Assembly (NCBI GenBank): GCA_963921275.4
Contig: OZ001293.3
Coordinates: 2,400,001-2,464,000 of the forward strand
Reading direction: 5' to 3'
DNA from: an uncultured Hormoscilla sp.
GTDB taxonomy: Bacteria > Cyanobacteriota > Cyanobacteriia > Cyanobacteriales > Desertifilaceae
Length of the DNA: 64,000 nt
Shown here: piece by piece, positions 1 to 16,089 of the stretch
Numbering within the stretch: the first letter of the stretch is position 1
Layout: every line of letters begins with the position of its first letter
Translations under genes and position numbers: made by a program
The notes under the pieces: generated by a model
Databases searched by the model: none
Told to the model about the DNA's origin: nothing
The model's input: only the letters and a program-made list of their open reading frames with translations

Positions 1-74
1 GCGATAATTACGATCCATGCTCAGATAACTGGGCAGCAGCAAAAGTGGGGCAGTCCGTGCCACCGGCCACCTAA
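1..74 (-). pseudogene. 3' continuation of the conserved cyanobacterial membrane-anchored hypothetical gene interrupted at 75-1952 (runs off the window edge)
   Basis: Reverse strand reads (I)RWPVARTAPLLLLPSYLSMDRNYR and joins in frame to ...VVNLPYPMI of 1953-2289 when the insert and one TAA are removed. Confidence 0.85.
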
Positions 75-234
75 GGGACTTGCGGTTTAATAATGTACCA
101 ACGACTTCGCTACTGGACTGTCTGGGTTAAACTTGCAAGCACGGCCCGGCTAAAGTTCAAAACCCCCGCCTAATCAGCTTAAGTCGTCTTAAGACGACTG
201 AGGTTATTCGGTACTTTATTTCTGCGCAAGTCCC
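75..234. mobile_element. 160-bp MITE, copy 1
   Basis: TIRs GGGACTTGCG...CGCAAGTCCC, flanked by TAA on both sides, internal palindrome AGTCGTCTTAAGACGACT, no ORF. Confidence 0.85.
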
Positions 235-300
235 TAAAGGTCTAGGAAGGGCTCTTGTAAATGCCCAGGAGGTAGTCCGCCTGGGCAGCGGAGGCTACTA

Positions 301-1305
301 CTACTTGGCGGCGTAGATCGCCCAATCGTAGGCCGCCCGGGCGATCTGAGCAATCACCTGCTCCTTCGTGTCGAACGACGCCTTGTTGCAGTTGTAGACC
401 GCGATGACGAGAACCTCTCCATCGGGGAGGCGGATCCATCCGACATCGTTGACCGAGTCATGACCGGTTCCGGTCTTGTCACCCACAACAGTGCCCGGCG
501 GCAACATGCCCTGCAAACGGGCTTTGCCGGTGCGGGTTTGCTCCATAATGTCGATGAGAACTTCGGTGCGCTCTTTATCGAGAACTTTATTCGCCATAAA
601 CTTCGACAAGAGCTGCACCATGGCGTCCGGCGTGGTCGTGTCGCGCTCGTCGTCCCAGAAGGAACTGTTGTCGAGCGGGCGAAGGAAGAAGTCCTCGTCT
701 TGCTCATTGAGGAACTCTATGACTTCGTCAAAGTTGTCAAGATCGTAGGCATCCATGAACAGGTCGTTCAAATTGCGTTCAACGCTGATTTCCTCGACAC
801 CCTGCTCTTGCACCCACGCCTCGACGCCTTTGGGGCCATACATGAGGCGCATCATCGTGTTCGGAGTGGTGTTGTCGCTGTCAACAATGGCCGTCCAGAT
901 GAGATTGTAGAGCTTGGTCGTCGTTGGCGCCTGCGGGAACGTCAGGTTCACCGGCGACAGCACGGATAAGTCTTCATCGGTGATGGTGATCTGCTCTTCG
1001 AGCGTCAGTTTGCCTTGCGAAACAAGGTCGAGCGCCTCCATCGAAACGGGTATCTTCACGGTGCTCATCATCGGGAACCGATGATCGCCGTTGATGAGCG
1101 AGATCGGCTCTTCTCCTGCAAAGGCGATGCTCGCCCCAACACCGCTGTCCACTGGCTCAGGTACTTCGTCGTCCACAGTCTGGGCGATACGGGCCACCTC
1201 GGCCCGAAGCGTTTCCAGGCTATCGGCGAATGCTGGTTCAGGTCCTCCTACGACTTGAACCAAAGCTACGGATAGGAGGATAAGGAGGATAAGGGTTCGT
1301 TTCAT
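301..1305 (-). CDS. Secreted class A beta-lactamase-like serine hydrolase
   Basis: Signal peptide; motifs FPMMSTVK (SxxK), SDN, DTTTP, DKTGT; acidic insertion in the omega-loop region. Confidence 0.85.
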   Translation of the reverse strand: MKRTLILLILLSVALVQVVGGPEPAFADSLETLRAEVARIAQTVDDEVPEPVDSGVGASIAFAGEEPISLINGDHRFPMMSTVKIPVSMEALDLVSQGKLTLEEQITITDEDLSVLSPVNLTFPQAPTTTKLYNLIWTAIVDSDNTTPNTMMRLMYGPKGVEAWVQEQGVEEISVERNLNDLFMDAYDLDNFDEVIEFLNEQDEDFFLRPLDNSSFWDDERDTTTPDAMVQLLSKFMANKVLDKERTEVLIDIMEQTRTGKARLQGMLPPGTVVGDKTGTGHDSVNDVGWIRLPDGEVLVIAVYNCNKASFDTKEQVIAQIARAAYDWAIYAAK

Positions 1306-1562
1306 GATCTACTTCTCGAAGGTGTCAAGTTTTCTTCCGTAAATGGGCCGCTCTATTTGCAGATCGCCCCGTGAGGTCCTCAGGCAAATCAGGATTGGCA
1401 TCGTCTCCCAAATCAACGCTATGCAAGGAGCTACGATCATAAAGTAGTCCATAAAGTGGGGGATGTCAATGAACTCGTGCTGCTGAATTCCTATCGGGCG
1501 AGCACGGCGAGCACTCAAAAGCTAAGGTGCAATTCGGTAACCCATCGTTGTACCGGTATGTT

Positions 1563-1722
1563 GTCTAACTCGTTATTGGAGTGAACTGTTCCGCATAACA
1601 CCCATATTTGGGGGATTAGGTGGCAAATTTTCTACCTAACTACCCGATTGAGGTGTTTAGGTGGAAATACGCCAGCCTAACGTCCCTATTAGGGTGATTA
1701 GGTAGACGAGTTCAGTATAATC
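1563..1722. repeat. About 41-bp periodic imperfect palindromic repeats (CTAAC...TTAGGT)
   Basis: gtctaac 1563, gcataac 1593, acctaac 1634, gcctaac 1675; the last three are each followed by ...TTAGGT. Confidence 0.5.
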
Positions 1723-1792
1723 ATCCCTCCTATGAGCACTTGAATTGCTTAGGGTTTGTTTATCATCCTGGTTGGTGTACTACCCGATGCAA

Positions 1793-1952
1793 GGGACTTG
1801 CGGTTTAATAATGTACCAACGACTTCGCTACTGGACTGTCTGGGTTAAACTTGCAAGCACGGCCCGGCTAAAGTTCAAAACCCCCGCCTAATCAGCTTAA
1901 GTCGTCTTGAGACGACTGAGGTTATTCGGTACTTTATTTCTGCGCAAGTCCC
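1793..1952. mobile_element. 160-bp MITE, copy 2
   Basis: Same sequence as 75-234 apart from one visible substitution (cttaag/cttgag). Confidence 0.85.
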
Positions 1953-2289
1953 TAATCATCGGATAAGGCAAGTTAACTACATAGATCAACCCAGCTGCAC
2001 CCAACAACAGGGCCGCTGGCCACTTCATTTTGCTCAAGGCCGACGGTGGACGGTTAGCTTTAGCAGCTGCTTTCAGGGCTTTTTCGCTAAACTGGGGAAA
2101 CACATCGACAACTGTGTCTCGCAGTTCTTCCTCTTGGGCGGGGTCGCCTTTTTGCAGACGCAGCTTTTCTAAGCGCTCCATCACAATCGACTTCTCGGTT
2201 TGGCTTAACCTATCTGTGCCAGCACATTGGTCAACTTCTGCTCGCAGGATAAAATAAGCACGCTTATTCAGACGGGATATCGATTTCAC
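1953..2289 (-). pseudogene. 5' part of conserved cyanobacterial hypothetical membrane-anchored protein, disrupted by the composite element
   Basis: ORF 1897-2289 has a TM segment then NLPYPMIR and runs into the MITE. Confidence 0.8.
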
Positions 2290-2562
2290 CCCTACTGCTC
2301 TTGTGATGAAAGTATTTTGAGTTTATTATTTCATCGATAGAATATCAACCGCATTTATAATCGTGCCAGTTGTCAATTGTGAATTGAGCACCGGCGATCT
2401 AAAGACAGCTGCTCATAGGGCAACCAGCGTCGGTCACCGAACGGGCGATCGGGCCGGGCGGGTGTTTGTTCGAGTTGGAAGCCCTTGACAGGGATGATAG
2501 AATGAGGAAATTATAGCCTCAAGTGACACCGCAGGCGAGTTATATGTTGAAATATCTACGCA

Positions 2563-4456
2563 ATGCAAGGCTTGGTAAAATTTCTTTTCGCGACATCAGA
2601 TCTTACTGTGGCGCATTTTATTGCTGAGTATACCAGTGCTGTTGCTGGGGCAATATGTGACCTACAGAAAGGCCCGTTCGACGCTGCTGGAAACAGCCAG
2701 CCAAAATCTTACCGAAAGCGCGATCAGAGAGGGTAGTCGTATTGAAGAGGCGATCGCCGCTTGGCAAAGCAACCTGCTGACAGGGACGAAAACCTCACTA
2801 TTGCAGTCTGGTAACCTAGAGGCATCTGCACAATACTTAAAGCATCTGGCATCTTTATGGCCAGTGGACTGTCTGCAATTACAGGATATCAAGACGGGGG
2901 CGATCGCCGCTAGTACCTGTGGCGATCGGACTATCGCCCCAGTGAAGTTGTCGCCTCCAGACAAGGCAGCGGTACAGGTAGTATTGCCAGAGACAGCATC
3001 AGCTAGTGAGATTGATTAGCAAAACCAACTTGACTTGATTTTGAGTGCGCCTGTCTCTGACAAGCAGGGGAATGGACACCTCCAGTTAGTGGTTGAGTCG
3101 GTTTTGCCGCTATAGGTGACAGATGAGCCTAAGTCTCTGACAGGCTATACGGTGGAGATCGACCAAGATGGCACTATTATAGCCCATCCCGACTTAGAGC
3201 GGGTGGGACAAAATATTGCCTCCGAGAAAAATGGGGAGACCCGGAAAAGACTCTCAAGTCTGGTCAAAAATGCGATCGGGGGGGAAAAATATTTTCAGCA
3301 TGTCTCTGGTTTTGATGATAGCGGCAAGGAATTACTGGCGGGCTACAGTGCGATCGACAGTCCCACAGATAGGACTAACGGCAAATGGGTGATTTTAGTT
3401 GTCACCAGATTTGGATAACGCTCTGTTTGGTTTCCAAGAAATCCTGCGAAGTCTGATCGATCCGATCTTACTCTTGATTGCGGCTAATCTGGTGGCAACC
3501 CTAATTCTGGCACAGGACCTGGCGCGTCCGATGGAAAAACTGGGAGAGTATGCCCGCAATACCGAAGGCCAGGAAGCAACGGATCCCATCCTCCACAATT
3601 TTAATATCAAAGAGTTCAATCAACTAGCTCTGGCCCTTAACAGTATGGTCTCGTGCCTGAAAGCTTGGGCCGAGGAGTTGATTTCGACATGGCAAGAAGC
3701 CAAAGTAGCTAACCAGCTGAAAAATGAGTTTCTCGCCAGTATCTCTCACGAGTTGAGAACACCCCTCAATACTATTATTGGTTCCGTGCGCTTGGTACTG
3801 GATGACTACTGTGATGATAGAGAGGAAGAAAAGCTGTTTCTGCAACAGGTGTATGATGGGACGATTCGCCTGCTGGAAATTATTGATGATATTCTCGACC
3901 TCGATAAATTTGAAGCGGGTACTCTTTCTGTCGATCTGGAACGGGTCGATCTGCTAGAGGTACTCAAGGAAACAGTCAATTTACAGATGGTTCAGATTCA
4001 GCAAAAAAGCTTACAGTTGAATTGGCATAAGTCCACAGAGGCGATCGCAGTCCAGGCCGATCGGGCCAAGCTCAAGCAGGTGTTCCTGAATGTCCTGAGT
4101 AACGCTATTAAGTTCACTAAAACTGGCAGCATCACCATTACCACCCGGATAGCAGCCCCAAGCTCTAGTTCTGAGGGTGAAACCTATGTTAATGTTGCTA
4201 TCCTAGATATTGGCATTGGTGTTGACAAAAGTAATCAGTCTAAACTGTTTCAGCCCTTGTGATGGCTGATGGTAGCAGAACTCGTGAGTTTGGAGGTGCA
4301 GGACTGGGATTAGCAATTTCGCGGAACTTGATGGAACTTATGCATGGCAGCATTACTCTCTCTAGTGAGGGTAAAGATCAGGGCAGTACAGTCGAGATCG
4401 CATTGCCTGTGATTAAAACTTCGCTGTTACCTAAACCCACATCATCCCCACCCTAA
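2563..4456 (+). pseudogene. Membrane sensor histidine kinase (Cache-type sensor, HisKA, HATPase), fragmented
   Basis: Fragments 2621-3019, 3116-3418, 3399-4262 (SHELRTPL, NAIKFT) and 4259-4456 ([10 protein letters not shown]) separated by stops and frameshifts. Confidence 0.85.
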
Positions 4457-4540: not shown

Positions 4541-5167
4541 ATGTCTTACAGTGATTTTACCCTGACAGAACTGGAAAATAAATTTAACCTGATTATTCAG
4601 GAAAGAGTAGAATTGTTTCCGGCAGTAGAACCTGTCAATCCTAGTCCAATTTTGAAAGAGGTTCTAGCAGAAAATATTCCTCTAGCTTTAGAAATAAATA
4701 CAGAGAAAGCACGATCAAAAATGATAGTGGCTCCAATTTTGATTGAAATCAGGAAAATTTTTCAACGTCAAATCAGCTTGTTTTCAGGAAGAGATTTTAA
4801 TATAGATAAAGAAAAGGGACTGAACGGTAGATGTGATTTCCTCATCAGTCATTCCCCTAGACAGTTGGAAGTTACGGCACCTGTTGCTATGCTAGTTGAG
4901 GCCAAAAATGATAATCTGCAATCGGCAATCCCTCAGTGCATTGCGGAAACGATCGCTGCTCAAATCTTTAACGAACAGAAGCAGAATAATATTCCTTGTA
5001 TTTATGGTGGAGTGACAACAGGAAGTCTCTGGCAATTTCTCAAATTAGAAGCAAATACTGTTTATATTGAGGCTGGAGAACATTTTATTGGTAATATAGA
5101 ATTGCTGCTCGGTATTCTCTCACAGATAATTCATACTACTCTGCCCCGATCGATGTCATGCAATTAA
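4541..5167 (+). CDS. Conserved cyanobacterial hypothetical protein (PD-(D/E)xK-like, MSYSDFTL family)
   Basis: GRCDFLIS...VEAK...QCIAE...YGGVTTGSLWQFLKL motifs. Confidence 0.65.
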   Translation: MSYSDFTLTELENKFNLIIQERVELFPAVEPVNPSPILKEVLAENIPLALEINTEKARSKMIVAPILIEIRKIFQRQISLFSGRDFNIDKEKGLNGRCDFLISHSPRQLEVTAPVAMLVEAKNDNLQSAIPQCIAETIAAQIFNEQKQNNIPCIYGGVTTGSLWQFLKLEANTVYIEAGEHFIGNIELLLGILSQIIHTTLPRSMSCN

Positions 5168-5214
5168 CAATTTTTATCCCAGGGAATAAACATCAAGCTG
5201 TTTTGGGTATTCTG

Positions 5215-5463
5215 TCATTCCCACTCTTCTTCATCCCAACTATGTGTAATAATATTATCGATTAGCAATTGGTCATCTCCATTTTCTGCCATTATCCTAA
5301 ATGCACTTTCCCATTCATGACGAGGGGGCCGTACTGGTGATATCACTAAACGGCTGTTTTCTACGGTAATTTAGACTGTTTTACCGAACCCGCACTCTTG
5401 AAGCATTGGTTTGGGGATTTTTATACATTGCTCCTTGCCAATGCGAATTAACTGGGCTTTCAT
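5215..5463 (-). pseudogene. AbrB/MazE-type antitoxin with internal stop; cognate toxin reduced to a few codons
   Basis: Manual translation MKAQLIRIGKEQCIKIPKPMLQECGFGKTV*ITVENSRLVISP...WDEEEWE*. Confidence 0.7.
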
Positions 5464-5663
5464 TTTTGTTCTCCCATACTCAACTGTCTAAGTGAATACT
5501 TGGTAATTATATCACAATATGACCCTCCCTTCGTCACCGATGACCTTAAGAGACTCATTATCTGACCCTCCCTTCGTCACCTATGACCTTCCGAAAGTCA
5601 TCGGCACATCCGAGATCCTAAATCATAATAATCGGTACCGAATTTCGCCGCAAGTCCCTTAAT

Positions 5664-6036
5664 TCAAAATTGAGATGCTTCCAGATCCTGAGCTTTTTGC
5701 TTGTCGGCGTGAGCCCCCTCAACATCGCCCAACTTACGGCGGGCCTGGCTGCGGAGCCGATAGGCTGCGGGAAAGTTTGGTTTGAGCTTGATGGCTTGAC
5801 TGGTATCAGCGATCGCCTCTTCGTAGTCCTGTAACATCATATTTGCGCGAGCACGTGTGAGGTAAGCATTGGCATCCCGCCGGGTTCTGTTGCAACGCTT
5901 CGTTAGCCCTGCGGCGTCTTCCGCATGCTCTTGTCCTGAAGGACTCGGCATGCGGAAGACACCGATCGAACATCTGAGCGGTCCTCAGGGCATTAGCTTT
6001 GAGGGAGTCTTCCTTTGCTCCCTGTTCGTCACCCAT
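5664..6036 (-). pseudogene. TPR-repeat protein fragment
   Basis: AYLTRARANMMLQDYEEAIADTSQAIKLKPNFPAAYRLR; frame break at a hairpin repeat near 5915-5963. Confidence 0.6.
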
Positions 6037-6178
6037 CCGACGAAGAACCGTACTCCGAATTAGATATTACTTCCCGCCTACCGACTGATTTAAGGGATAA
6101 TAACTCGGCTGATTAAAATCCGCTTGGCCATAGATTTCATAAGTACTTTGCTGCATAGATTTTCTGCCCCTCAGCAAC

Positions 6179-6457
6179 TCATGTTTCATCTTTATACTTT
6201 CTGACTACGAAGGAGTTATCATTCTGGTGAGAACGACTTAGTTCCTGAGCTTGATTAACTGCCGTTTTCAGGTTATCGTAGGGACCGGACCATAAATACT
6301 TCTTCAATAACCGGTCATATCCGGCTAGAGAACCGAACACGACATAATAAACACCATACAGTTCGCCATTACTTCCAGTTATCTTTCTGAGCACGAGCGA
6401 TCCTTTCCTCCTTATCTTAACTTCCCTGCTGCTTCGGAGGCAGTTTTTTGAGGACAT
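6179..6457 (-). CDS. Hypothetical protein
   Basis: 92-aa ORF with no recognised motif. Confidence 0.3.
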   Translation of the reverse strand: MSSKNCLRSSREVKIRRKGSLVLRKITGSNGELYGVYYVVFGSLAGYDRLLKKYLWSGPYDNLKTAVNQAQELSRSHQNDNSFVVRKYKDET

Positions 6458-6578
6458 TGCTTGAGTAATGTATTACCAGATACATTTTTTTGAAGATATC
6501 CTGCTAATATTCATAAGTAGATTGAGAAAATTCTTCGAGGCGGTTGGGTGACAATAGTGACAAGATTATCTGTAGAGT

Positions 6579-6678
6579 ATGAGCAATGGTGTGGTTGGGA
6601 AAATCGGCTATGAAGCTAAATCGGCATCTGTTGGCCATATTGATAGCATCACATCCAAGGCGATGGGATATAGTATAC
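6579..6678 (+). CDS. Exon 1 of AbrB-family (membrane AbrB duplication) protein
   Basis: ATG 6579 (alternative ATG 6663) is open to the intron 5' end and joins 9917 in frame: ...MGYSI-P-QIAKIS. Confidence 0.65.
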
Positions 6679-6916
6679 GTGCGATTCGTTTAGCGTAAAC
6701 TAACTTGACACAAGTCAAGGAGGGGGACCGCTACCGGGATTTCGTAAGTCCCGAGAACTTACAGGTGATGGTGGTGAAAGCCCGCCCCTCCAGGTGCAGG
6801 AGTGACAGCACCCTCCCCACGGTAGCGATGGCATCAATCCGTGAAGCGGGAAGGAAAGGCGCTATGGCTGGGAGCCTAGACCGGTCATCGTCGAGCAAGT
6901 AACTATGATGAGCGTA

Positions 6917-7750
<834 letters not shown>

Positions 7751-8113
7751 TAAGCGAAGGTTTGCAACGTCGTAAAGCCTATCCAGTGTAATAAGGCTGA
7801 TACACTGGCCCAAAAAGGGAAAGGATACTGGTCATTGGCGGATGTATACCCGACCAATAAGCACTGACAATAAACCCGGCGTAGAGAACCCGTCTAAGGT
7901 TACGACCAATCATCTGTAGGAACGAAGTAACCCGGTTGTAGCACTCTCCATCACCGGTCGATAGATGGAGTAGCCACCACAGGCGTAACATCTGCTCTCC
8001 GGAAGGCAGGACGCAACTGGGGGAGATTGAGTGGAGAAGCAAATGCCTGTCTGTAATGGATAGGATAAGCTGACGCCCTCACGGTCTCGTCAATTGTGAA
8101 GTTGTAAGTAGTA

Positions 8114-9910
8114 GTGAATATGTCACGGAACTTAGTCGAAAGACAAGAGTATGAATGGAAGACTGTCGCCTGGCGAAAGCTGGAAAGGATAGTTTTTAAG
8201 CTGCAAAAGCGAATTTACAGAGCGGCACTGGAAGGTAATAAGCAGAAGGTTCGTAAGCTCCAAGGATTACTAAATAGGTCATGGTCCGCGAAGATGATAG
8301 CGGTACGGCAGGTAACACAACAAAACCAGGGAAAGAAGACGGCTGGTGTGGATGGTGTGAAAGCACTGACCCCAAAAGAACGTATCGAACTGGTAGGTCA
8401 AATCAAAGTTACTCGAAAGGCGAAGGCAAAAGCCACACGAAGAGTGTGGATACCGAAGCCACGAAGGGAGGAGAAGCGGCCATTAGGAATACCAACGATG
8501 CACGACCGCGCACTTCAGGGATTGGTTAAAGAAGCGCTAGAGCCTGAATGGGAAGCGTATATGGAAGCCAATTCCTACGGGTTTAGACCAGGTAGGGGAT
8601 GTCATGATGCAGTTGCAGCGATATTCGCTAGCATCAGTCAAAAATCGAAATGGGTGTTAGATGCGGATATTGCGAAGTGTTTCGACGAAATTGACCATTC
8701 CGCGCTCCTAAAGAAATTGAATACTACGTCACCAATCCGTAAACAAATACGGGCATGGCTAAAAGCTGGGGTGATGGACCGGGGAAGGATGGAATCCACA
8801 GAAGCCGGAACTCCCCAAGGTGGGGTTATATCTCCATTACTAGCCAATATAGCTTTACATGGGCTGGAAGGGGTAGTAATGGGTCTCGCTCACACAAAAA
8901 GAGAGAAGGAGAAGTTAACCGTAGTAAGATATGCGGATGACTTTGTGGTAATACATAATGACCGGTCGATGATTGAGGAAGCTCAAGGAGTGATTGAGGA
9001 GTGGTTGAAGGGAATAGGGCTGGAGCAAAAAGCCGAGAAAACGAAGATATCCCACACATTGGAAGGAGAGAGCCCTGGATTTGACTTCTTAGGGTTCAAT
9101 ATCCGACAATATAAAGTAGGGAAACACAGAAGCGGCAAACTCTGTAACGGAACCCCCCTAGGATTCAAGACCCTAATCAAGCCTAGCGATAAATCCATAA
9201 GGAATCATAAAGAGCAGCTATCAGAGATAGTTCGCCGCCATAAAGGGGCACCGCAAACGGCCTTAATAGCAAGACTAAACCCGATGATAAGGGGATGGAG
9301 CAACTATTATAGGACGGTGGTAAGTAAAGAAACTTACAGCTCTATGGATAACTACTTATGGAAGTTGTTATGGCGATGGGCAAAGAGAAGACATCCTAAC
9401 AAAACGGGCAAATGGATTGCTAGTAAGTACTGGGGTATGACCGGGAAAGACCGGTGGAGGTTCGCTGGCAAGTCTAAAGAAGATGGAGGAATGAAGCTAA
9501 ACCGATACTCTGAAACTGAAATAATCAGACACGTAAAGGTTAAGGGGACAGCTAGCCCGTTTGACGGTAATCTGGTTTATTGGAGCAAAAGACTGAGAAA
9601 AAGCCCGGATGTGAGCGCTAGAGTTATCAGACTGCTAAAAGAGCAGGATGGTAAGTGTGTGCACTGCGGACTGAAATTCAAAGATGGCGACAAATGGGAG
9701 GTTGACCATATTCTACCAGTTTCTAAAGGAGGTAAAGACTGGTATACCAACCTACAGTTGCTGCATGATTATTGCCATGATGTAAAGTCTGCCAGAGATG
9801 GTGACAAAGGCCGTATCCATGACAAGGATGGCGAAACTGAGGAGCCGGATGAGGTGAAAGTCTCACGTCCGGTTCTGAAGACGAGTCGGCGGGGTGACCC
9901 GTTGGCTTAG
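8114..9910 (+). CDS. ltrA: Group II intron reverse transcriptase/maturase with C-terminal HNH endonuclease
   Basis: RPLGIPT, SYGFRPGR, GTPQGGVISPLLANI, YADD, X domain RGWSNYY, C-x2-C...EVDH...NLQLLH. Confidence 0.95.
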   Translation: MNMSRNLVERQEYEWKTVAWRKLERIVFKLQKRIYRAALEGNKQKVRKLQGLLNRSWSAKMIAVRQVTQQNQGKKTAGVDGVKALTPKERIELVGQIKVTRKAKAKATRRVWIPKPRREEKRPLGIPTMHDRALQGLVKEALEPEWEAYMEANSYGFRPGRGCHDAVAAIFASISQKSKWVLDADIAKCFDEIDHSALLKKLNTTSPIRKQIRAWLKAGVMDRGRMESTEAGTPQGGVISPLLANIALHGLEGVVMGLAHTKREKEKLTVVRYADDFVVIHNDRSMIEEAQGVIEEWLKGIGLEQKAEKTKISHTLEGESPGFDFLGFNIRQYKVGKHRSGKLCNGTPLGFKTLIKPSDKSIRNHKEQLSEIVRRHKGAPQTALIARLNPMIRGWSNYYRTVVSKETYSSMDNYLWKLLWRWAKRRHPNKTGKWIASKYWGMTGKDRWRFAGKSKEDGGMKLNRYSETEIIRHVKVKGTASPFDGNLVYWSKRLRKSPDVSARVIRLLKEQDGKCVHCGLKFKDGDKWEVDHILPVSKGGKDWYTNLQLLHDYCHDVKSARDGDKGRIHDKDGETEEPDEVKVSRPVLKTSRRGDPLA

Positions 9911-9916
9911 TTTAAT

Positions 9917-10989
9917 CACAGATCGCAAAAATTAGCACGCAGCTAGCAGTTGCCATTGTAGCAGGCTTACTATGCAACTGGCTGTATGTTCCAGTAGGTT
10001 GGCTAATCGGTCCCATGCTGGTGGGAATTGCCTATGCTCTGATCCAGGGTAACCCCCAACCGCTACCAGCAGCTTTTATGAGCGTGGGGCAAGCAGTAAT
10101 TGCGATCGCCACCGCTGCTGGCTTTGACTACGAGACATTGGCAAAGGCAACAACCTATGCAATACCGCTACTACTATGTATAATAATCACTGGCAGCCTG
10201 AGTTTGTGCAACGGCTACCTGTTATGGCGCTGGGCTGGTATTGATTGGGCTACGGGTTTTTTGGGTTCTATCCCTGGTGCCAGTCATAGTCTGGTGGCCA
10301 TGAGTGAAGAAATGGGGGCTGACGCGATCGCAGTTGCCCTACTTCAGTATATACGGGTGTTGCTAGTAAGCTTAATCATACCAACTCTAGCTAGCTTATT
10401 TTTTCCCATCGACGCAAGCGCCCCAGCTGTAACAACCATACCAACAGAAAGCCACCTACCAATGTGGTTGAACCTATTCGTCCTAGTTGCCTGCGGCGGC
10501 TTAGGAATTTGGGGGGGACGCTGGTTACGCTTGCCCGCGTCGATGTTCTTAGGTCCCTTTCTGGCCGGGCTAGTCGCAGTTTGGACCCTGCCACAGCAGT
10601 TACAGATGCCCGATGTCTTTTTCACAGCAGGACTGCTGCTAGTGGGACTCTCCATTGGTCTCAAGTTTGACTGGGAAACCACCCGCAAACTTTTCAAAGC
10701 GGTTTTGCTGGAGGTAGCTTTAGTGATACTATTGATTCTGATTTGTCTGGGAGTGGGATATGAGTTCCATCTGGTCACGCAAGTTGATACAATGACCTCC
10801 GTATTAGGTTGCACTCCCGGAGGGATAACTGCAATGATAGCTACTGTTATCCAGCTGGGTGGTGATTCTGGGTTAGTGCTAGCGATGCAGATGACCAGGA
10901 TGTTGCTGATTCTGCTGATTAGCCCTATTTTAGCGACTTTAATGGTTCAAAAGGCTGCTAGTTACGATTGTGAATCTCAGGGTAAATAA
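9917..10989 (+). CDS. Exon 2 of AbrB-family integral membrane protein
   Basis: Frame is open from 9919; PVGWLIGPM, PGASHSLVAMSEEMGAD, PGGITAM motifs; multiple TM segments. Confidence 0.8.
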
Positions 10990-11914
10990 AAACGAAGTAC
11001 AGAAGGTTTTCCTGAATAATTGTGGAGAGATTGCCATGAATATGATGACAGCAGATAAATTACAGAGGGATTATTTACTCAATGACAAGCAGTGGTTGTC
11101 AATTTTGGACGGGGCCAAAAGCAGGCTGGAAGAGGACGGTTACTGGATATTTTAAGCCGGAAACACTGACAGAACGACTGTGCTGGAATTGGCCGATTGT
11201 TTCGGAAAGCGCCAAAGTCACGTACTCACAGATGGAGATGGCATTCACGAAGTTAGTACCAAGTCATATCACAAAAAAACGACAATTGTCAAGCAGCAAT
11301 ACCTGGGCAATACCAACAAAGAGCATAAACTGCACACATATGGAGTATATCTTGATGGAATAGCCAAAACAAAAGAAAGTCGTTTAGTCTCGGTTGTGCC
11401 ACCAGTACTGGTGCTAATGCTGCTGGCGCAGCCAGCAGCATCAGGCGGTGCTAGTCTGGTGTTGGACAGCAAACAGATGTTAGAAGACGCGCTGCACCAA
11501 GACCATGAGCTAGTAAAAGTATTGTTGCAGCCCTGTGTAGTCTATTCCCGAGATGACCAATGTGCAAGAACCCCAGTTTTTACCCGCATCGGTCTTGAAG
11601 GTTGGAGTATTCGCTGGCGTTATGACTTTGCAACTCTGGTAGAAGAGGATGCCTGCGATGCCCTCAAGCTTTTCTATGACAAGTACATATCCAACCCCAA
11701 GTACCTGAAGCGTTTTGAGTTACAAGCAGGAGATATTTTGGTGGTGGACAACTTGAGATGCATTCACGGTCGAGAAGCATTTACGAACTATCCAGAGAAA
11801 CCCCGCTTGCTGCGTAGAGTATGGGTTGGCGCGAAGGAGCAGCTGTTTGTGAACCCTCTGGGTCAAGCACAGCATAAACGGGTTTACGATCAATATCAGT
11901 CCTATAGCTGCCTA

Positions 11915-12809
11915 GGGCGTGTCATCAGTTAGATTAACGATATGGGTCCCCACCAAAAATATATAACAAGATGATTGAGTTGACAACCAGGATATATTGG
12001 TGTGATCTAAGAGGGTAAAGGTTAGAGCAGGAGAATTTGAGAAATGCGTCGCTATGCTTTAAGAGATGACCAGTGGGAGAGAATCAGGGACCTATTGCCA
12101 GGTCGGGAGGGTTATGTGGGGGGGACAGCTAAGGATAACCGCTTATTTGTCTATGCTGTCTTGTATCGATATAGAGCTGGGATACCTTGGCGGGACTTAC
12201 CCGAGCGATTTGGGGACTTGAGGGTAATTCATACGCGCCATAGTAGGTGGTCAAAATCCGGGGTATGGGAAAGAGTATTCAAGGTACTTGCGTCCGATGC
12301 CGATAACGAATATGCGATGATTGATGCCACGATATAAAGGGCTCATCAACATAGTGCAGGTGCTCAAAAAAAAGATTGCGACCAAGCCATCGGACGCCGT
12401 AAAGGGGGTTTGAGTACCAAAATTCACGCGACCTGTGACGCATTGGGGAACCCAACGGGTTTTCATTTAACAGCCGGTCAAGCTCACGATTTGGAAGGGG
12501 CTGATGTGTTACTTGATAATATTAAGGCTGATGCGTTACTCGCAGACAAAGCTTCTGATGCTGACGAACGGGTTTTGAAACGTCTTGAAGCCCAGCAATG
12601 CGAACCTGTGATTCCGCCTAAATCCAATCGAAAAGAACAACGCCGTTATGACAAATATCTATACAAAGCACGTCATTTGATTGAGAATTTTTTTGCCAAA
12701 CTCAAGCAATATCGAGCCATTGCCACCCGTTACGATAAGAGGGCTCAGAATTTCTTGGGTGCTATCTACCTGGCTGCTACTGTTGTTTGGCTTAACTGAT
12801 GACACGCCC
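11915..12809 (+). mobile_element. IS5-family (IS427-like) insertion sequence
   Basis: TIR GGGCGTGTCATCA...TGATGACACGCCC with TA duplication in a CTAG site. Confidence 0.9.
12044..12799 (+). pseudogene. IS5 transposase (orfA/orfB with A-run slippery site), premature stop at 12335
   Basis: MRRYALRDDQW...GIPWRDLPERFG; IDATI*RAHQHSAGA; orfB ...RAIATRYDK. Confidence 0.85.
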
Positions 12810-12947
12810 TAGAAGTAGAAGCCAGAAAACCTTTGATTAAAGTCTCGACAGGTATCCGACTGAACCCAGACAGCCAAGCGATCGCTTCGAGACTGTTGTT
12901 TGACTCTTAGAGATCGGCCAACTGACAACCCACAACCCACAACTGAC

Positions 12948-13904
12948 ATGGTATATGCTTTCCTAACATGCGCCCTGTTGCTATTCACCATGTTGGTGAC
13001 AGTCCCCACTCAGGCTGTTGCCGACAGTTTAGCAGCAATTATCGATGACAACGCCCAGGTAGAAAAAGTGGCCACAGGCTTTGAGTTTACAGAGGGACCA
13101 GTTTGGGACGATGTTGGCTTCCTACTATTTAGCGGTATTCCCGCTAATACTATTTATAAATGGTGGGCTGCTGAGGAAAAACTAGAGGTATTTCGTCACC
13201 CTTCTGGAAATGCCAATGGCAATACTCTCGATAGTTCGGGGCGCTTGCTGACTGCGGAGTATGGTAACCGTCGCATATCGCGCACCTCCAAGGACGGCAC
13301 TGTGGTGACAGTGGCCAGTCAATACGATGGGAAACCGCTGAATAGCCCCAATGACTTGGTAGTTAAGTCAGATGGAAGCATCTACTTTACCGACCCTTTC
13401 TACAGCCTGAGATACTACAATCTCCAGAAACAGCCCGAAGAACTGGGGGTCTACGGTGTCTATCGGATAGCACCGAATGGGATAGTGACTCTCCTGGTTA
13501 AGGACTTTGCACGTCCGAATGGCATTGCCTTTTCGCCAGACGAGCAAAAACTCTACGTTAATGATTCCTAAAAAAGTCACATTCGCGTCTTTGATGTGAA
13601 GCCAGACGGCACCCTGACCAACGGACGTATTTTTGCCCAAGTGAAGGACTCCAGCAAACCGGGCGGACCAGATGGCATGAAAGTAGACTTGCAAGGGAAT
13701 GTATACTGTGCTGGACCGGGGGGACTGTGGGTTTTCTCACCGTCGGGCAATTTGCTGGGCATTATTGAAGTGCCAGAGGTTCCGACTGCTAACCTGGCAT
13801 GGGGCGACAGTGACTACAAAACTCTCTACATTACGGCAAGAACTAGCCTTTACCGAATTCATCTCAAAATCCCGGGGGGACGATCGGGACTAATCCCGTT
13901 CTAA
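12948..13904 (+). pseudogene. SMP-30/gluconolactonase family protein with in-frame stop at 13569
   Basis: FTEGPVW, LNSPND, PNGIAFSPD, GPDGMKVD; both halves are in the same frame. Confidence 0.85.
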
Positions 13905-13954
13905 TAAATCTCGCCATTTGGGCCATTGTTTTGTTCTTGAGGATAGCAGCAGAA

Positions 13955-15086
13955 ATGAAAATTGATAGTAACCGCCAAAGTGGAAAACGCTCGGTATTAA
14001 TATTGAGGAGCGATCGCACCCATGTTGACCTAGATCTAGTTCTGGCTGGTTGGGCAGAAATGGGCATAAAAACTGAGGTTTTTCATGTCAACAGGCTGAT
14101 GAATGGCGAGGTAGATTTTGATGATTTCATCAAAAAATTTCACTAAAAAATTTCACTGGTCAGAAATAGGGGCGATCGATCTGCGCTATTGCCGGGGGAT
14201 GCCGCGAAATTGGGATAAAGGATATCAGCAGATTTTTCACAAGCTGAAAGAATTTCTGGAGTTACAACAAGCAGCAGGGAATGCTATTGCCGTCAATCCC
14301 TCTTTTGAAACCTTACATTGGGTACTTGACAAAGCTGGTTATCTCTCAGAAATGCAGCAAAAGGGAATTCCGACTATTCCTACGGTTATTTGGCCCCCAT
14401 CTTCAGAGGAATTTGATTTGCTTGATTATTTTAACCGTAATGGGGTCGATCGCATCGTCTTAAAGCCAGCCGTTGGTTCGGGAACAAATGGATTAGAATT
14501 CATTAACAGAGTTAAGGGATAAAACGATCAATATGAAGTAAAAAAATATAGTAGAGATGGGAACGATAGCGGGTTACAAAAAATCATCATCTTAGAAGGC
14601 GATCGGCAGTTGCGCAGTCATTTGATAGATTACCGCCAGCGCCATAAATTACCAATACTAGTGCATAATTTTGAGGAAATCCAAGGCGAAATCTCAGCAG
14701 TATTTATTAATGGCGAACCCCATTTCGTCGAACGGACATTAGGAGAAAATACGGGAATTGCTCATGAAAAATTTGGTGGAGAAAATATATTTATTCTTCA
14801 GCCGCCACTAGCATGGCAAACCTGGGCCCACAAAATATATCAAGCCTTACCAGATGTAGCCAAAAACACGGTGTCCCTGAGGATAGATATGTTTGAGCGT
14901 CCAGATGGGGAATTAATTCTGAGTGAAATTGAAGGTGCATCCCATCGAGTATTATTCCCCGAAACACTCAGCTATTACAAAGAAGATCCTACAGGGGAAA
15001 AACAAGAAATGTCAAAACTGGAGTTAAGGGAGATTAGTTTAGTCAAAAAATATATAGAAACATTATCTCAAATGGCAGGAATGTAG
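13955..15086 (+). pseudogene. ATP-grasp (RimK/glutathione synthetase-like) ligase, disrupted
   Basis: DKAGYL, IPTIPT, VLKPAVGSG, GEISAVFING, RIDMF...LILSEIE; 13-bp duplication 14132-14157 and stop at 14520. Confidence 0.7.
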
Positions 15087-15237
15087 CAGTTTACTCATTT
15101 CATTTCTGTTATCCCATTCAGTAAGTAGTTCGTAATGATGTAATCCGCGAACTGCTTTTTTTAATGTTAGACTATATCGGTGGAAGATGGATGGCGTAGA
15201 CGCACCGTGCGATCGGGAGCTATGAGAACGCAGTAAA

Positions 15238-16089
15238 ATGACAAAAGGGAAAACAATGGACAACGCGGTACGCCGAAACTATCGCTACATCAAGGTGCAT
15301 CCGATCGCAGGTGCGATCGGGGCCGAGATCCAAGGGGTGGATCTGGCAGAACCCCTCGAAGGTGAAGTCGTTGAGGAGATTCGCCTTGCCTTTCTCGATC
15401 ACTTAGCAATCTTTTTCGCTAATCAAGAACTCACCCCCCACCAACAGCTTGCCTTCGCCCAGCAGTTTGGTCAGACAATGGAATACCCACTGATCGAGGG
15501 ACTGCCCGAATGTCCGCAGATAACACCGGTGGTCAAGCTGGAGCACGAGCGGATGAACTTCGGCGGCATATGGCATTCCGATACCACCTATCTGGAGCGT
15601 CCGCCGATGGCGAGCATCCTCTACGCTGTTGAGATTCCGCCCTACGGTGGCGACACCCTTTTCGCCAACCAGTACATGGCTTACGAGACCCTCTCGGAGG
15701 GTCTGAAGAAGACTCTCGACGGACTCGTCGGCATCAACACCTCGTCGAAGGCCCATGCCTTCCTAGGGGAAGCCAGTCCAGAGCAGGAGGTGATAGTCGG
15801 AGCCCATCCGGTCGTGCGCACGCACCCAGAGACTGGGCGGAAGGCCCTTTACGTCAACATTAATCACACAAAGCACTTCCAGGGGTGGACAGCGTCCGAA
15901 AGCCGACCTCTGCTCGACTATCTCTTCGAGCACCAAGTCAGACCGGAGTTCACCTGCCGCTTTCGCTGGCAGCGCGGTTCCCTCGCCTTCTGGGATAATC
16001 GCTGCACCCAGCACAACCCGGTGAATGACTATCACGGGTTCAAACGCATCATGCATCGCGTCACATTAGCTGGCGACAAGCCGTACTGA
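15238..16089 (+). CDS. TauD-family 2-oxoglutarate/Fe(II) dioxygenase
   Basis: IGAEIQGVDL, WHSDTTY, GGDTLF, HPVVRTHPETGRK, WDNRCTQH. Confidence 0.9.
   Translation: MTKGKTMDNAVRRNYRYIKVHPIAGAIGAEIQGVDLAEPLEGEVVEEIRLAFLDHLAIFFANQELTPHQQLAFAQQFGQTMEYPLIEGLPECPQITPVVKLEHERMNFGGIWHSDTTYLERPPMASILYAVEIPPYGGDTLFANQYMAYETLSEGLKKTLDGLVGINTSSKAHAFLGEASPEQEVIVGAHPVVRTHPETGRKALYVNINHTKHFQGWTASESRPLLDYLFEHQVRPEFTCRFRWQRGSLAFWDNRCTQHNPVNDYHGFKRIMHRVTLAGDKPY

Follow-up and report, generated by a model that had tools for sequence, protein, structure and literature searches.

A transposase-less unit bounded by ISAzo13-type MITEs with an integron-remnant cargo in a Hormoscilla genome: a probable composite transposon

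Introduction

In the structures described as TIME-COMPs and integron mobilization units (IMUs), pairs of Tn3-derived MITEs (miniature inverted-repeat transposable elements) bracket blaGES-5, blaKPC-2, qnr or tet(A) on enterobacterial plasmids, and the authors state, in the available part of their report, that within the Enterobacteriaceae they knew of none whose MITEs lie outside the Tn3 group (PMC13367494). MITE-flanked class 1 integrons of Acinetobacter are described in the available text of a review (PMC10969869), and in the accessible portion of another report ISNpu3 is presented as the presumed partner of the Nezha MITEs, which occur in Anabaena and Nostoc (PMC3184786). A survey, as far as its available text extends, found integrons in Cyanobacteria and none in 243 alphaproteobacterial genomes (PMC4889954). 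Here, a stretch of 64,000 nucleotides (nt) from an uncultured Hormoscilla sp. (assembly GCA_963921275.4, contig OZ001293.3, positions 2,400,001 to 2,464,000 of the forward strand), hereafter the window, was analyzed, at the beginning of which two nearly identical MITEs enclose a class A beta-lactamase-family gene. A first-pass annotation made from the letters alone had proposed that this pair delivered the gene into a host gene. The observation was confirmed and the interpretation was partly supported, being right in kind. It was concluded that positions 75-1952 probably represent a 1,878-bp non-autonomous MITE-bounded composite transposon, which carries an integron remnant as its cargo and would have moved into a host gene in one step.

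Results

Structure of the unit and its target site

Two 160-nt elements, MITE copy 1 (75-234, plus strand) and MITE copy 2 (1793-1952, plus strand), were found by a repeat search and by alignment to differ at one mismatch and to bracket 1,558 nt. The single difference was an A/G exchange within an internal palindrome. The direct-repeat family to which they belong (73-237 and 1791-1955, 165 nt, 99% identical) was the sole one in the first 4 kb. Each copy had inverted ends of 26 nt that were 81% complementary, the left end reading GGGACTTGCGGTTTAATAATGTACC and the right end being the complement of GGGACTTGCGCAGAAATAAAGTACC, and neither an open reading frame (ORF) of note nor a transposase gene was present in its 160 nt. 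No other full copy of the element was detected in the 7.03-Mb, 7-contig genome, where a search gave four matches, the other two being at most 40 nt long. An Rfam search of window positions 1-2600 at E values up to 1 gave no match.

Copy 1 was flanked as TAA-GGGACTTGCG...CGCAAGTCCC-TAA and copy 2 as CAA-GGGACTTGCG...CGCAAGTCCC-TAA. Since the copies were directly oriented, copy 1 contributed a left end and copy 2 a right end to the outside of the unit, and these formed a proper left/right pair. The TAA triplets at 72-74 and 1953-1955 constituted a 3-bp duplication around the entire unit. Under the composite model, the TAA at the inner flank of copy 1 (235-237) would be one half of the duplication made on insertion in the donor. 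No transposase was found within the unit, and apart from the beta-lactamase-family gene nothing in the cargo matched a family.

The interrupted sequence belonged to a gene on the minus strand. An intact 447-aa ORF of this gene was located at -1530..-187 (negative coordinates denote positions upstream of the window) and read through the site as ...NLPYPMIRWPVARTVPLLLLPSY. By self-comparison, its segment a (-619..-521) was 97% identical to a segment a' (-24..74), and its segment b (-525..-30) was 88.5% identical to a segment b' (1951-2429), the order in this genome being a-b/a'-MITE-cargo-MITE-b'. The interrupted copy was thus not a whole gene, and was instead a 5' partial duplicate of ~595 nt, joined to the intact copy at ...CAACCAGCG/ATCGACTTGCTC, with the duplicated segment beginning 24-34 nt upstream of the window. 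Its 3' piece occupied 1-71 and read RWPVARTAPLLLLPSYLSMDRNYR, its first ~112 codons lay at 1956-2289, and its upstream (promoter) region lay at 2290-2429, where the duplicated segment ended according to both the self-comparison and the relatives; all three parts were on the minus strand.

Filled and empty sites in relatives and the assembly check

The comparisons covered 41 genomes, namely the present one (G000) and 40 relatives, with four other genomes of the genus representing sister species (G001-G004). Full-length MITE matches were obtained in three of the 41 (G000, G002 and G003), all of one genus and all at this locus. In G002 a single host-gene copy was split in the order body-a/MITE-cargo-MITE/b', and in G003 a single copy was split by the unit at the identical TAA on a rearranged 10.9-kb contig; neither genome had a second copy of the host gene. 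The site was uninterrupted with a single TAA in G001, which had an intact 483-aa host ORF, in G004 and in the intact copy of G000, the empty junction reading CCACCTAATCATCGG.

The host gene of G004 was broken elsewhere by a different insertion sequence (IS) of ~1.2 kb (record L048 from contig C1, positions 5157-6364) with ends ACGCGATGTGCAAC..., a 246-aa open frame and apparent AAGGTA flanks. As this IS sits at another place, the gene has been hit twice independently across the five species. In the rearranged contig of G003 (record L035, C278, positions 5300-10893), the gene body up to the equivalent of window position 1679 was inverted relative to the flanks, and a 180-aa fragment of a C-5 cytosine methyltransferase (PF00145, E 1.1e-32) was situated at the breakpoint. 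The MITEs of G003 had different internal deletions of 42 and 32 nt, and their retained parts showed 0-1 differences from the copies of G000.

Short repeats can mislead assemblers, and the Logan unitigs merged both MITE copies at about double depth in run X2, hence an assembly artefact across the two identical repeats was considered. The unit was, however, present in three independent assemblies (G000, G002 and G003). Contigs of run X2 extended with 0 differences over positions 1405-3017 of locus record L022 (window position = L022 position - 1197), from MITE copy 1 through the cargo into copy 2, those of run X4 covered 2988-3303 from copy 2 into b', and contigs of both runs crossed the b/a' junction (1045-1202) with 0 differences. 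Both runs may share their source with the assembly. The a'/MITE copy 1 junction was reached only by record 12 of X4 (1173-1299), with 28 letters in the MITE, which is under the 31-letter bridging rule. A contig of X6, a sponge-metagenome run of another study, joined 674 to 2988 of L022, i.e. segment a directly to the MITE, which is the state found in G002. The reading rests on X2, X4 and X6, with run X5, which is of low depth, and runs with small shares of the words set aside. An artefact was therefore regarded as scarcely credible.

When G000 was compared with G002, 13 mismatches in 1,650 nt (0.8%) were counted in the unit, positions 576-875 excepted, and 178 mismatches in 3,532 nt (5.0%) in the flanks (Fisher p = 3e-17). 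A unit about six times less diverged than its surroundings suggests a recent exchange between species through the flanks.

Several statements of the first-pass annotation were thereby borne out: the two directly oriented MITEs, for which the analysis gave one mismatch, 26-nt inverted ends, TTA/TAA duplications in their family and a cognate IS in sister species (see below); the lack of a transposase inside; and the in-frame rejoining of the host gene after removal of the unit, which the uninterrupted upstream paralogue and the single-TAA relatives read likewise (NLPYPMIRWPVARTVPLLLLPSY). The empty site that it had suggested looking for was found in G001 and G004, and the mis-assembly that it had named as a refutation was contradicted by the three assemblies and the contigs of X2 and X4. 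Its placement of the unit in a TAA-duplicated site of one gene held for the duplication and for the single copies split in G002 and G003; in G000 the interrupted copy turned out to be a duplicated 5' fragment next to an intact gene.

The MITE family and its ISAzo13-family partner

The 160-nt MITEs derive from an insertion sequence of the ISAzo13 family. A 1,321-bp IS copy in L069, a record titled Hormoscilla sp., encoded a 398-aa protein that matched PF07592 (E 1.6e-78) and the ISAzo13 model NF033519 (252 bits, cut-off 200), and also an IS630 model below its cut-off (55 bits vs 100). The ends of this IS, GGGACTTGCGGGAAAATAAGATACC, matched the MITE ends GGGACTTGCGGTTTAATAATGTACC and GGGACTTGCGCAGAAATAAAGTACC in a comparison made at the ends only. 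All six full IS copies examined (five in G004, one in G003) were surrounded by 3-bp duplications, TTA, TTA, TTG, TAA, TTA and TAA. Because these include TTG, which is CAA on the other strand, the CAA flank of MITE copy 2 was accepted as a legitimate target.

The end motif of the family was GGGACTTGCG-N3-WAATW-N3-TACC. Public genomes contained the pattern GGGACTTGCGNNNWAATWNNNTACC in at least 122 stretches, and almost all of the records concerned had cyanobacterial titles. Among the matches listed, there were 127 distinct family ends, flanked by TTA or TAA in 95 cases, by CAA in 5 and by TTG in 4, and 56 end pairs, spaced 90-170 nt (48 pairs), 511-526 nt (3) or 1,179-1,324 nt (5); Nostoc records among them included 121-170-nt elements with this end motif. 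The internal sequence of the 160-nt MITE was found outside the locus neither in the 41 genomes nor among the end-motif matches listed.

A PF07592 profile search revealed intact 398-aa transposase frames in G004 (nine) and G003 (one). None of the 39 matches in G000 was intact, although this genome is 96.7% complete and absence is not proven; neither of the two matches in G002 was intact, and G001 gave no match. The nearest remnant in G000 measured 290 nt (94% identical) and encoded 87 aa at 89.7% identity. In the absence of an intact cognate transposase, the unit is expected to be immobile in G000 at present. About 13 loose matches to the MITE end were counted in this genome, each with a TTA or TAA-type triplet at its flank.

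The nature of the transposase also bears on a replicative route, in which a small circle with one MITE and the cargo would fuse into the target and duplicate the MITE, in the manner of IS26-type translocatable units or Tn3-type cointegrates. Such an event should leave direct repeats on both sides of the donor DNA and duplicate the target at the outer borders of the unit, and both features were observed. Cut-and-paste is regarded as the mode of movement of IS630-type elements. The cognate transposase was of the ISAzo13 family with an additional sub-threshold IS630 match, no resolvase or res-like site was seen, and five of five examined copies of the full IS in G004, out of nine, were simple insertions with 3-bp duplications. 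This route was consequently considered very improbable.

A two-step origin was given somewhat more weight, and was still judged unlikely. Here, a solo MITE would first occupy the TAA of the host gene, and the cargo with a second MITE would then enter by homologous recombination with an incoming MITE on a circular or linear molecule. The end product would be the same, including the direct orientation and the flanks TAA...TAA and CAA...TAA, and the available text of PMC13367494 proposes this route for units bounded by MITESen1. The existence of the 160-nt variant only as these two copies is also in its favor and speaks against composite movement, for the pair could stem from one element without two independent insertions. 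Nevertheless, no solo MITE occupied the site in the five genomes of the genus, two of which were empty and three of which had the full unit, and a MITE-bearing donor molecule, itself unexplained, would be needed. One-step movement of the composite transposon was thus kept as the preferred reading.

Other occurrences of the family were recorded in passing. Solo ends lay at window positions 5634-5658 (minus strand) and at C1:2393735, 6.3 kb upstream of the window, with flanks TAA and TTA. The window interval 5211-5762 was missing at the matching place in G002 and G004 and carried two copies of a ~30-nt repeat, TGACCCTCCCTTCGTCACC.... End pairs of the same family 660-1,030 nt apart in G001 (L021 1501-2532, L018 749-1526 and L014 867-1526) enclosed long tandem repeats; no transposase was seen within the end pairs of L021, L018 and L046, whose contents were read by eye as ATP synthase genes or tandem repeats. 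G004 (L032, C10, positions 5026-16021) and G002 (L033, C2) contained arrays of 7-8 tandem units, about 1.25-1.35 kb each, the array of G002 being known from the spacing of MITE-end copies alone. In the L032 array, a Uma2-family domain (PF05685, E 7.5e-14) was encoded by a ~288-aa ORF in each unit, which also had 21-nt repeats inside it and a single solo 27-nt MITE left end in constant orientation.

IS5-family elements were rejected as partners of the MITE, as their ends, GGGCGTGTCATCAG, differ from it. Many such elements of ~880-900 bp were present in G000 (69 PF13586 matches, several near-identical subfamilies), and one was located inside the window at 12398-12793.

The integron remnant in the cargo

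By homology, the cargo was identified as the remnant of a cyanobacterial chromosomal integron, comprising two codons of intI, an attI-like region and a gene in the first-cassette position. When the 1,555-nt cargo was searched in 401 genomes of the order, 12 genomes gave matches. The whole cargo was found in G000, G002 and G003 only, and the other nine matched only window positions ~1562-1768, with 69-78% identity and E values down to 3.6e-31.

The conserved block contained the attI-like or integrase-promoter region of a cyanobacterial integron (1563-1736, plus strand), with repeated CCTAAC...TTAGG half-sites followed by TATAAT (near 1721). The block ended at GTCTAAC (1563-1569), where the outer core site is of the GTTRRRY type on the other strand. 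In genome G303, a homologous element (blastn E 1.6e-12, 70-78% identical to 1563-1736) preceded a complete integron integrase gene by 82 nt, and the 336-aa open frame of this gene scored 440.7 bits against TIGR02249 (cut-off 265). On the other side of that element, small co-oriented ORFs were separated by GTCTAAC...GTTAGAC or GTTAGGC sites. The G303 locus (L225/L218, contig C137) is an apparently complete cyanobacterial chromosomal integron with an integrase, an attI-like element and cassettes, among which an acetyltransferase-like ORF and a toxin-antitoxin-like pair were recognized by eye.

The N-terminus of intI followed the element in five of the ten loci tested, and the short ORFs after it matched integron-integrase models alone, weakly. 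The window aligned with two such loci, L206 and L207, through ATG CAA (1787-1792, plus strand), the first two codons of intI. These loci continued with CCT CCT CCC AAA AAG CTG (MQPPPKKLL), and at the corresponding point the window passed into MITE copy 2, which cut the gene. The position of the 1563-1736 element and its GTTRRRY-type sites point to an attI function.

The beta-lactamase-family gene was divergent from the start of intI. Since it was transcribed away from the terminal GTCTAAC core site, it was placed in the first-cassette position. Beyond the 3' end of the gene, the 63 nt at 238-300 (minus strand) contained a GCCCAGG...CCTGGGC hairpin, and no attC, i.e. no RYYYAAC...GTTRRRY pair, was noticed there on inspection. 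An attC may lie beyond the insertion point of MITE copy 1. No integron integrase above the TIGR02249 cut-off was found in the five genus genomes G000-G004, which makes the integron platform foreign to the genus.

The beta-lactamase-family gene

The 334-aa ORF at 301-1305 (minus strand), which encodes a signal peptide, matched Pfam Beta-lactamase2 (PF13354, E 1.2e-40) and, by a narrow margin, NCBIfam bla_class_A (NF033103, 202.4 bits vs a cut-off of 200). The motifs S-x-x-K (STVK), S-D-N, VERNLN and KTG were read in its translation, the glutamate of VERNLN being at what we take to be residue 166 in the standard numbering of class A enzymes. The G+C content of the gene was 56.5%, compared with 47.1% for the window.

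The nearest proteins came from records named Hormoscilla sp. (91% and 85% identity), followed by one of the alphaproteobacterium Roseibium hamelinense (70%), and these similarities identify the gene as one of probable alphaproteobacterial descent. A protein with at least 89% identity was present in three of the 41 genomes (G000, G002 and G003), the next best being at 36%, and no further cargo copies were found in G000. In the metagenome scan, two loci only, among the 80 matches listed, reached 64-66% identity; the homologue in L228 had an ordinary chromosomal context, and L229 was a 1.4-kb contig with almost no flank.

Within window positions 576-875, G000 and G002 differed by 30 mismatches and 21 gap columns, and this interval coincided with an insertion of ~40 aa in the protein. 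The differences between species were clustered, mostly non-synonymous, and included an 18-nt indel, the G000 allele being without six residues, among them a Gly-Gly nearly invariant in the family. Positive selection was considered and is not claimed: the overall dN/dS was 2.2, and that of the C-terminal half 2.5 (binomial p 0.04-0.11), and the excess of 30.5 non-synonymous over 3.5 synonymous changes in that half was not significant. In G003 the gene had a stop at codon 17 and three codons were gone at the Glu-166 region.

Directly upstream of the gene and co-oriented with it, a hydrophobic 69-aa ORF with a TTG start (1309-1518, minus strand), uncertain as a gene, ended 3 nt before the beta-lactamase start. 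It was identical in G002 and had an in-frame 12-nt deletion in G003; no homologue was found outside the units of G002 and G003 in the sequences compared. A promoter scan gave four sites, all in 2228-2361, and no promoter-like site within the cargo.

The host gene, its partial duplicate and a putative repair patch

No Pfam family was matched by the 447-aa host protein and no NCBIfam family by its N-terminal 413 aa. The two copies of its 5' end in G000 had different affinities to the sister species. Relative to G003, the intact copy had 3 differences in 315 positions over -1000..-680 and 11 in 60 over -679..-620. Within segment b there were 22 in the 336 coding positions, and 22 in 128 together with 35 gap columns in the upstream part. 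The coding part of the interrupted copy showed only 10-11 differences in 336 positions from G002, G003 and G004, and a' had one mismatch in 96 aligned positions with G003 and with G004 each. The probable ATG start of the interrupted copy had become ATA, in G000 only.

It was proposed that a patch of ~650 nt (-679..-30) brought in an intact 5' end with its promoter from an unsampled lineage. The patch would have been joined by a homologous crossover on its left and by an illegitimate join on its right, ahead of the native interrupted copy; an intact ORF would thus be restored, and the interrupted copy would persist as a fragment in decay.

If the 5' end had instead been duplicated in tandem in situ long ago, before the insertion, and the relatives had then lost one copy, no imported patch would be required, and the order a-b-a'-unit-b' with its sharp junction formally fits a duplication of ~595 nt. 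The two copies, however, differed at 24 of 336 coding positions and by 16 mismatches and 23 gap columns upstream, and the distance of the interrupted one to the single copies present in G002, G003 and G004 was only 10-11/336. Because it was near these single copies and far from the intact copy, several independent losses would be needed. Furthermore, the diverged tract started 60 nt before the duplicated segment (-679), as expected of a one-sided homologous crossover. This explanation was held to be improbable, more so than the two-step origin of the unit, and the imported patch was preferred. Import of a'-unit-b' into an intact recipient (Campbell-type or duplication-generating) was also tried and discarded, as the b copies differed throughout and the first copy was nowhere donor-like.

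Discussion

Proposed history of the unit

The following sequence of events would account for the composite transposon. In a donor cyanobacterium, one MITE would have inserted at CAA after codon 2 of intI, and another at TAA, 63 nt past the stop codon of the beta-lactamase-family gene. Working on the outermost pair of ends, a transposase supplied in trans would then have carried the 1,878-bp unit into the 447-aa host gene in the lineage of the genus, with duplication of the TAA there. Later, homologous recombination in the flanks would have led to exchange of the unit among species.

Several observations weigh against parts of this history. A single insertion site is known, so that mobility as a unit rests on one event. 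No donor integron with this cargo was found among the 401 genomes of the order or the metagenome matches listed, and the closest metagenomic homologue of the protein (66%) was situated in an ordinary proteobacterial chromosomal context with no integron. As no attC was seen downstream, the cassette status of the gene is not established. A glutamate at the residue-166 equivalent is missing in most members of the family, which may accordingly not consist of true beta-lactamases. In principle, constraint instead of a recent exchange could explain why the unit has diverged so little, and for the patch, no sampled genome had a closer allele.

With respect to the first-pass annotation, the GC-rich class A beta-lactamase-like gene that it had read in the cargo was verified (56.5% G+C, 202.4 bits against bla_class_A). 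The cargo is wider than that annotation had assumed, being a fragment of a cyanobacterial integron. The cargo is foreign, as it had supposed, with the nearest relatives of the gene outside the genus being alphaproteobacterial, whereas its wording that MITEs are mobilising such cargo in trans was too strong for one insertion site and a genome with no intact transposase. The full IS with matching ends that it had suggested searching for was not found intact in G000, and was recovered as 398-aa copies in G003 and G004.

A broader scheme is offered tentatively, as a possibility that we do not favor over its negation. Pairs of ISAzo13-type MITEs might be a cyanobacterial counterpart of IMUs, excising a module of attI plus the first gene from a chromosomal integron and moving it to new chromosomes. 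The gene might then have travelled from an alphaproteobacterium to a cyanobacterial integron, from there into a MITE composite and on to sponge-associated cyanobacteria, with a spread between species recent enough for the module to have stayed ~99% identical while their genomes differ by ~5%, and with the damage to the host gene undone by a captured foreign 5' end. If this were true, the beta-lactamase-like enzyme would be useful in that habitat.

The locus would offer a concrete, datable case in which a gene crossed from one phylum to another and afterwards from species to species. Owing to the intact transposase of the sister species, it also provides a simple test system, and the repaired host gene would be a natural example of an insertion bypassed without excision.

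Comparison with known systems

The predicted protein was compared with class A beta-lactamases, among which the PER/VEB-like subclass A2 was the nearest and shared the class motifs. It differed in scoring far below the cut-off of every named resistance family and in its family-specific insertion of ~40 aa, which had no alignment to solved class A enzymes.

The order seen in G303, intI, attI-like element and attC-like cassettes, is shared with cyanobacterial chromosomal integrons, of which the window keeps only a remnant. The alphaproteobacterial genomes surveyed in the available part of PMC4889954 had no integrons, whereas the nearest relatives of the window gene outside the genus are alphaproteobacterial.

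Compared with ISAzo13-family insertion sequences (PF07592, NF033519), the 1,321-bp partner encodes a transposase and the element in the window has none, with only broken relatives in G000. A literature search combining ISAzo13 and MITE brought up nothing beyond a general IS survey. By description alone, the Nezha elements resemble the present MITEs in being cyanobacterial, ~130-170 bp long, provided with ends like those of an IS of another species, and known from filled and empty sites; unlike for the window unit, carriage of cargo is not reported in the available text of PMC3184786. The MITE-flanked integrons of Acinetobacter likewise have a MITE pair around integron material that includes a beta-lactamase gene. 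They enclose, according to the available part of PMC10969869, a whole integron with intI1 and cassettes, whereas the window holds two intI codons, an attI-like region and one gene of the cyanobacterial chromosomal type.

The closest likeness in organization is to the TIME-COMPs, among which are units bearing blaKPC-2 and the IMU, which bears blaGES-5. As far as the available text of PMC13367494 describes them, these also consist of a transposase-less MITE pair around a resistance-type gene, with a target duplication, a transposase supplied in trans and empty ancestral sites, and the same two routes, composite movement or entry of a circle into a resident MITE, are discussed there. They differ in belonging to the Tn3 family, in being replicative, in making 5-bp duplications, in having res in some cases and in residing on plasmids of clinical bacteria, whereas the window unit is of the ISAzo13 family, has a 3-bp TWA duplication and resides on a cyanobacterial chromosome. 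MITE-bounded resistance-type units have been documented mainly for Tn3-derived MITEs on clinical plasmids, and the same logic is encountered here with the unrelated ISAzo13 family. That MITE pairs move resistance genes is already established; what is new here is the transposon family, the chromosomal location, the cyanobacterial host and the integron cargo.

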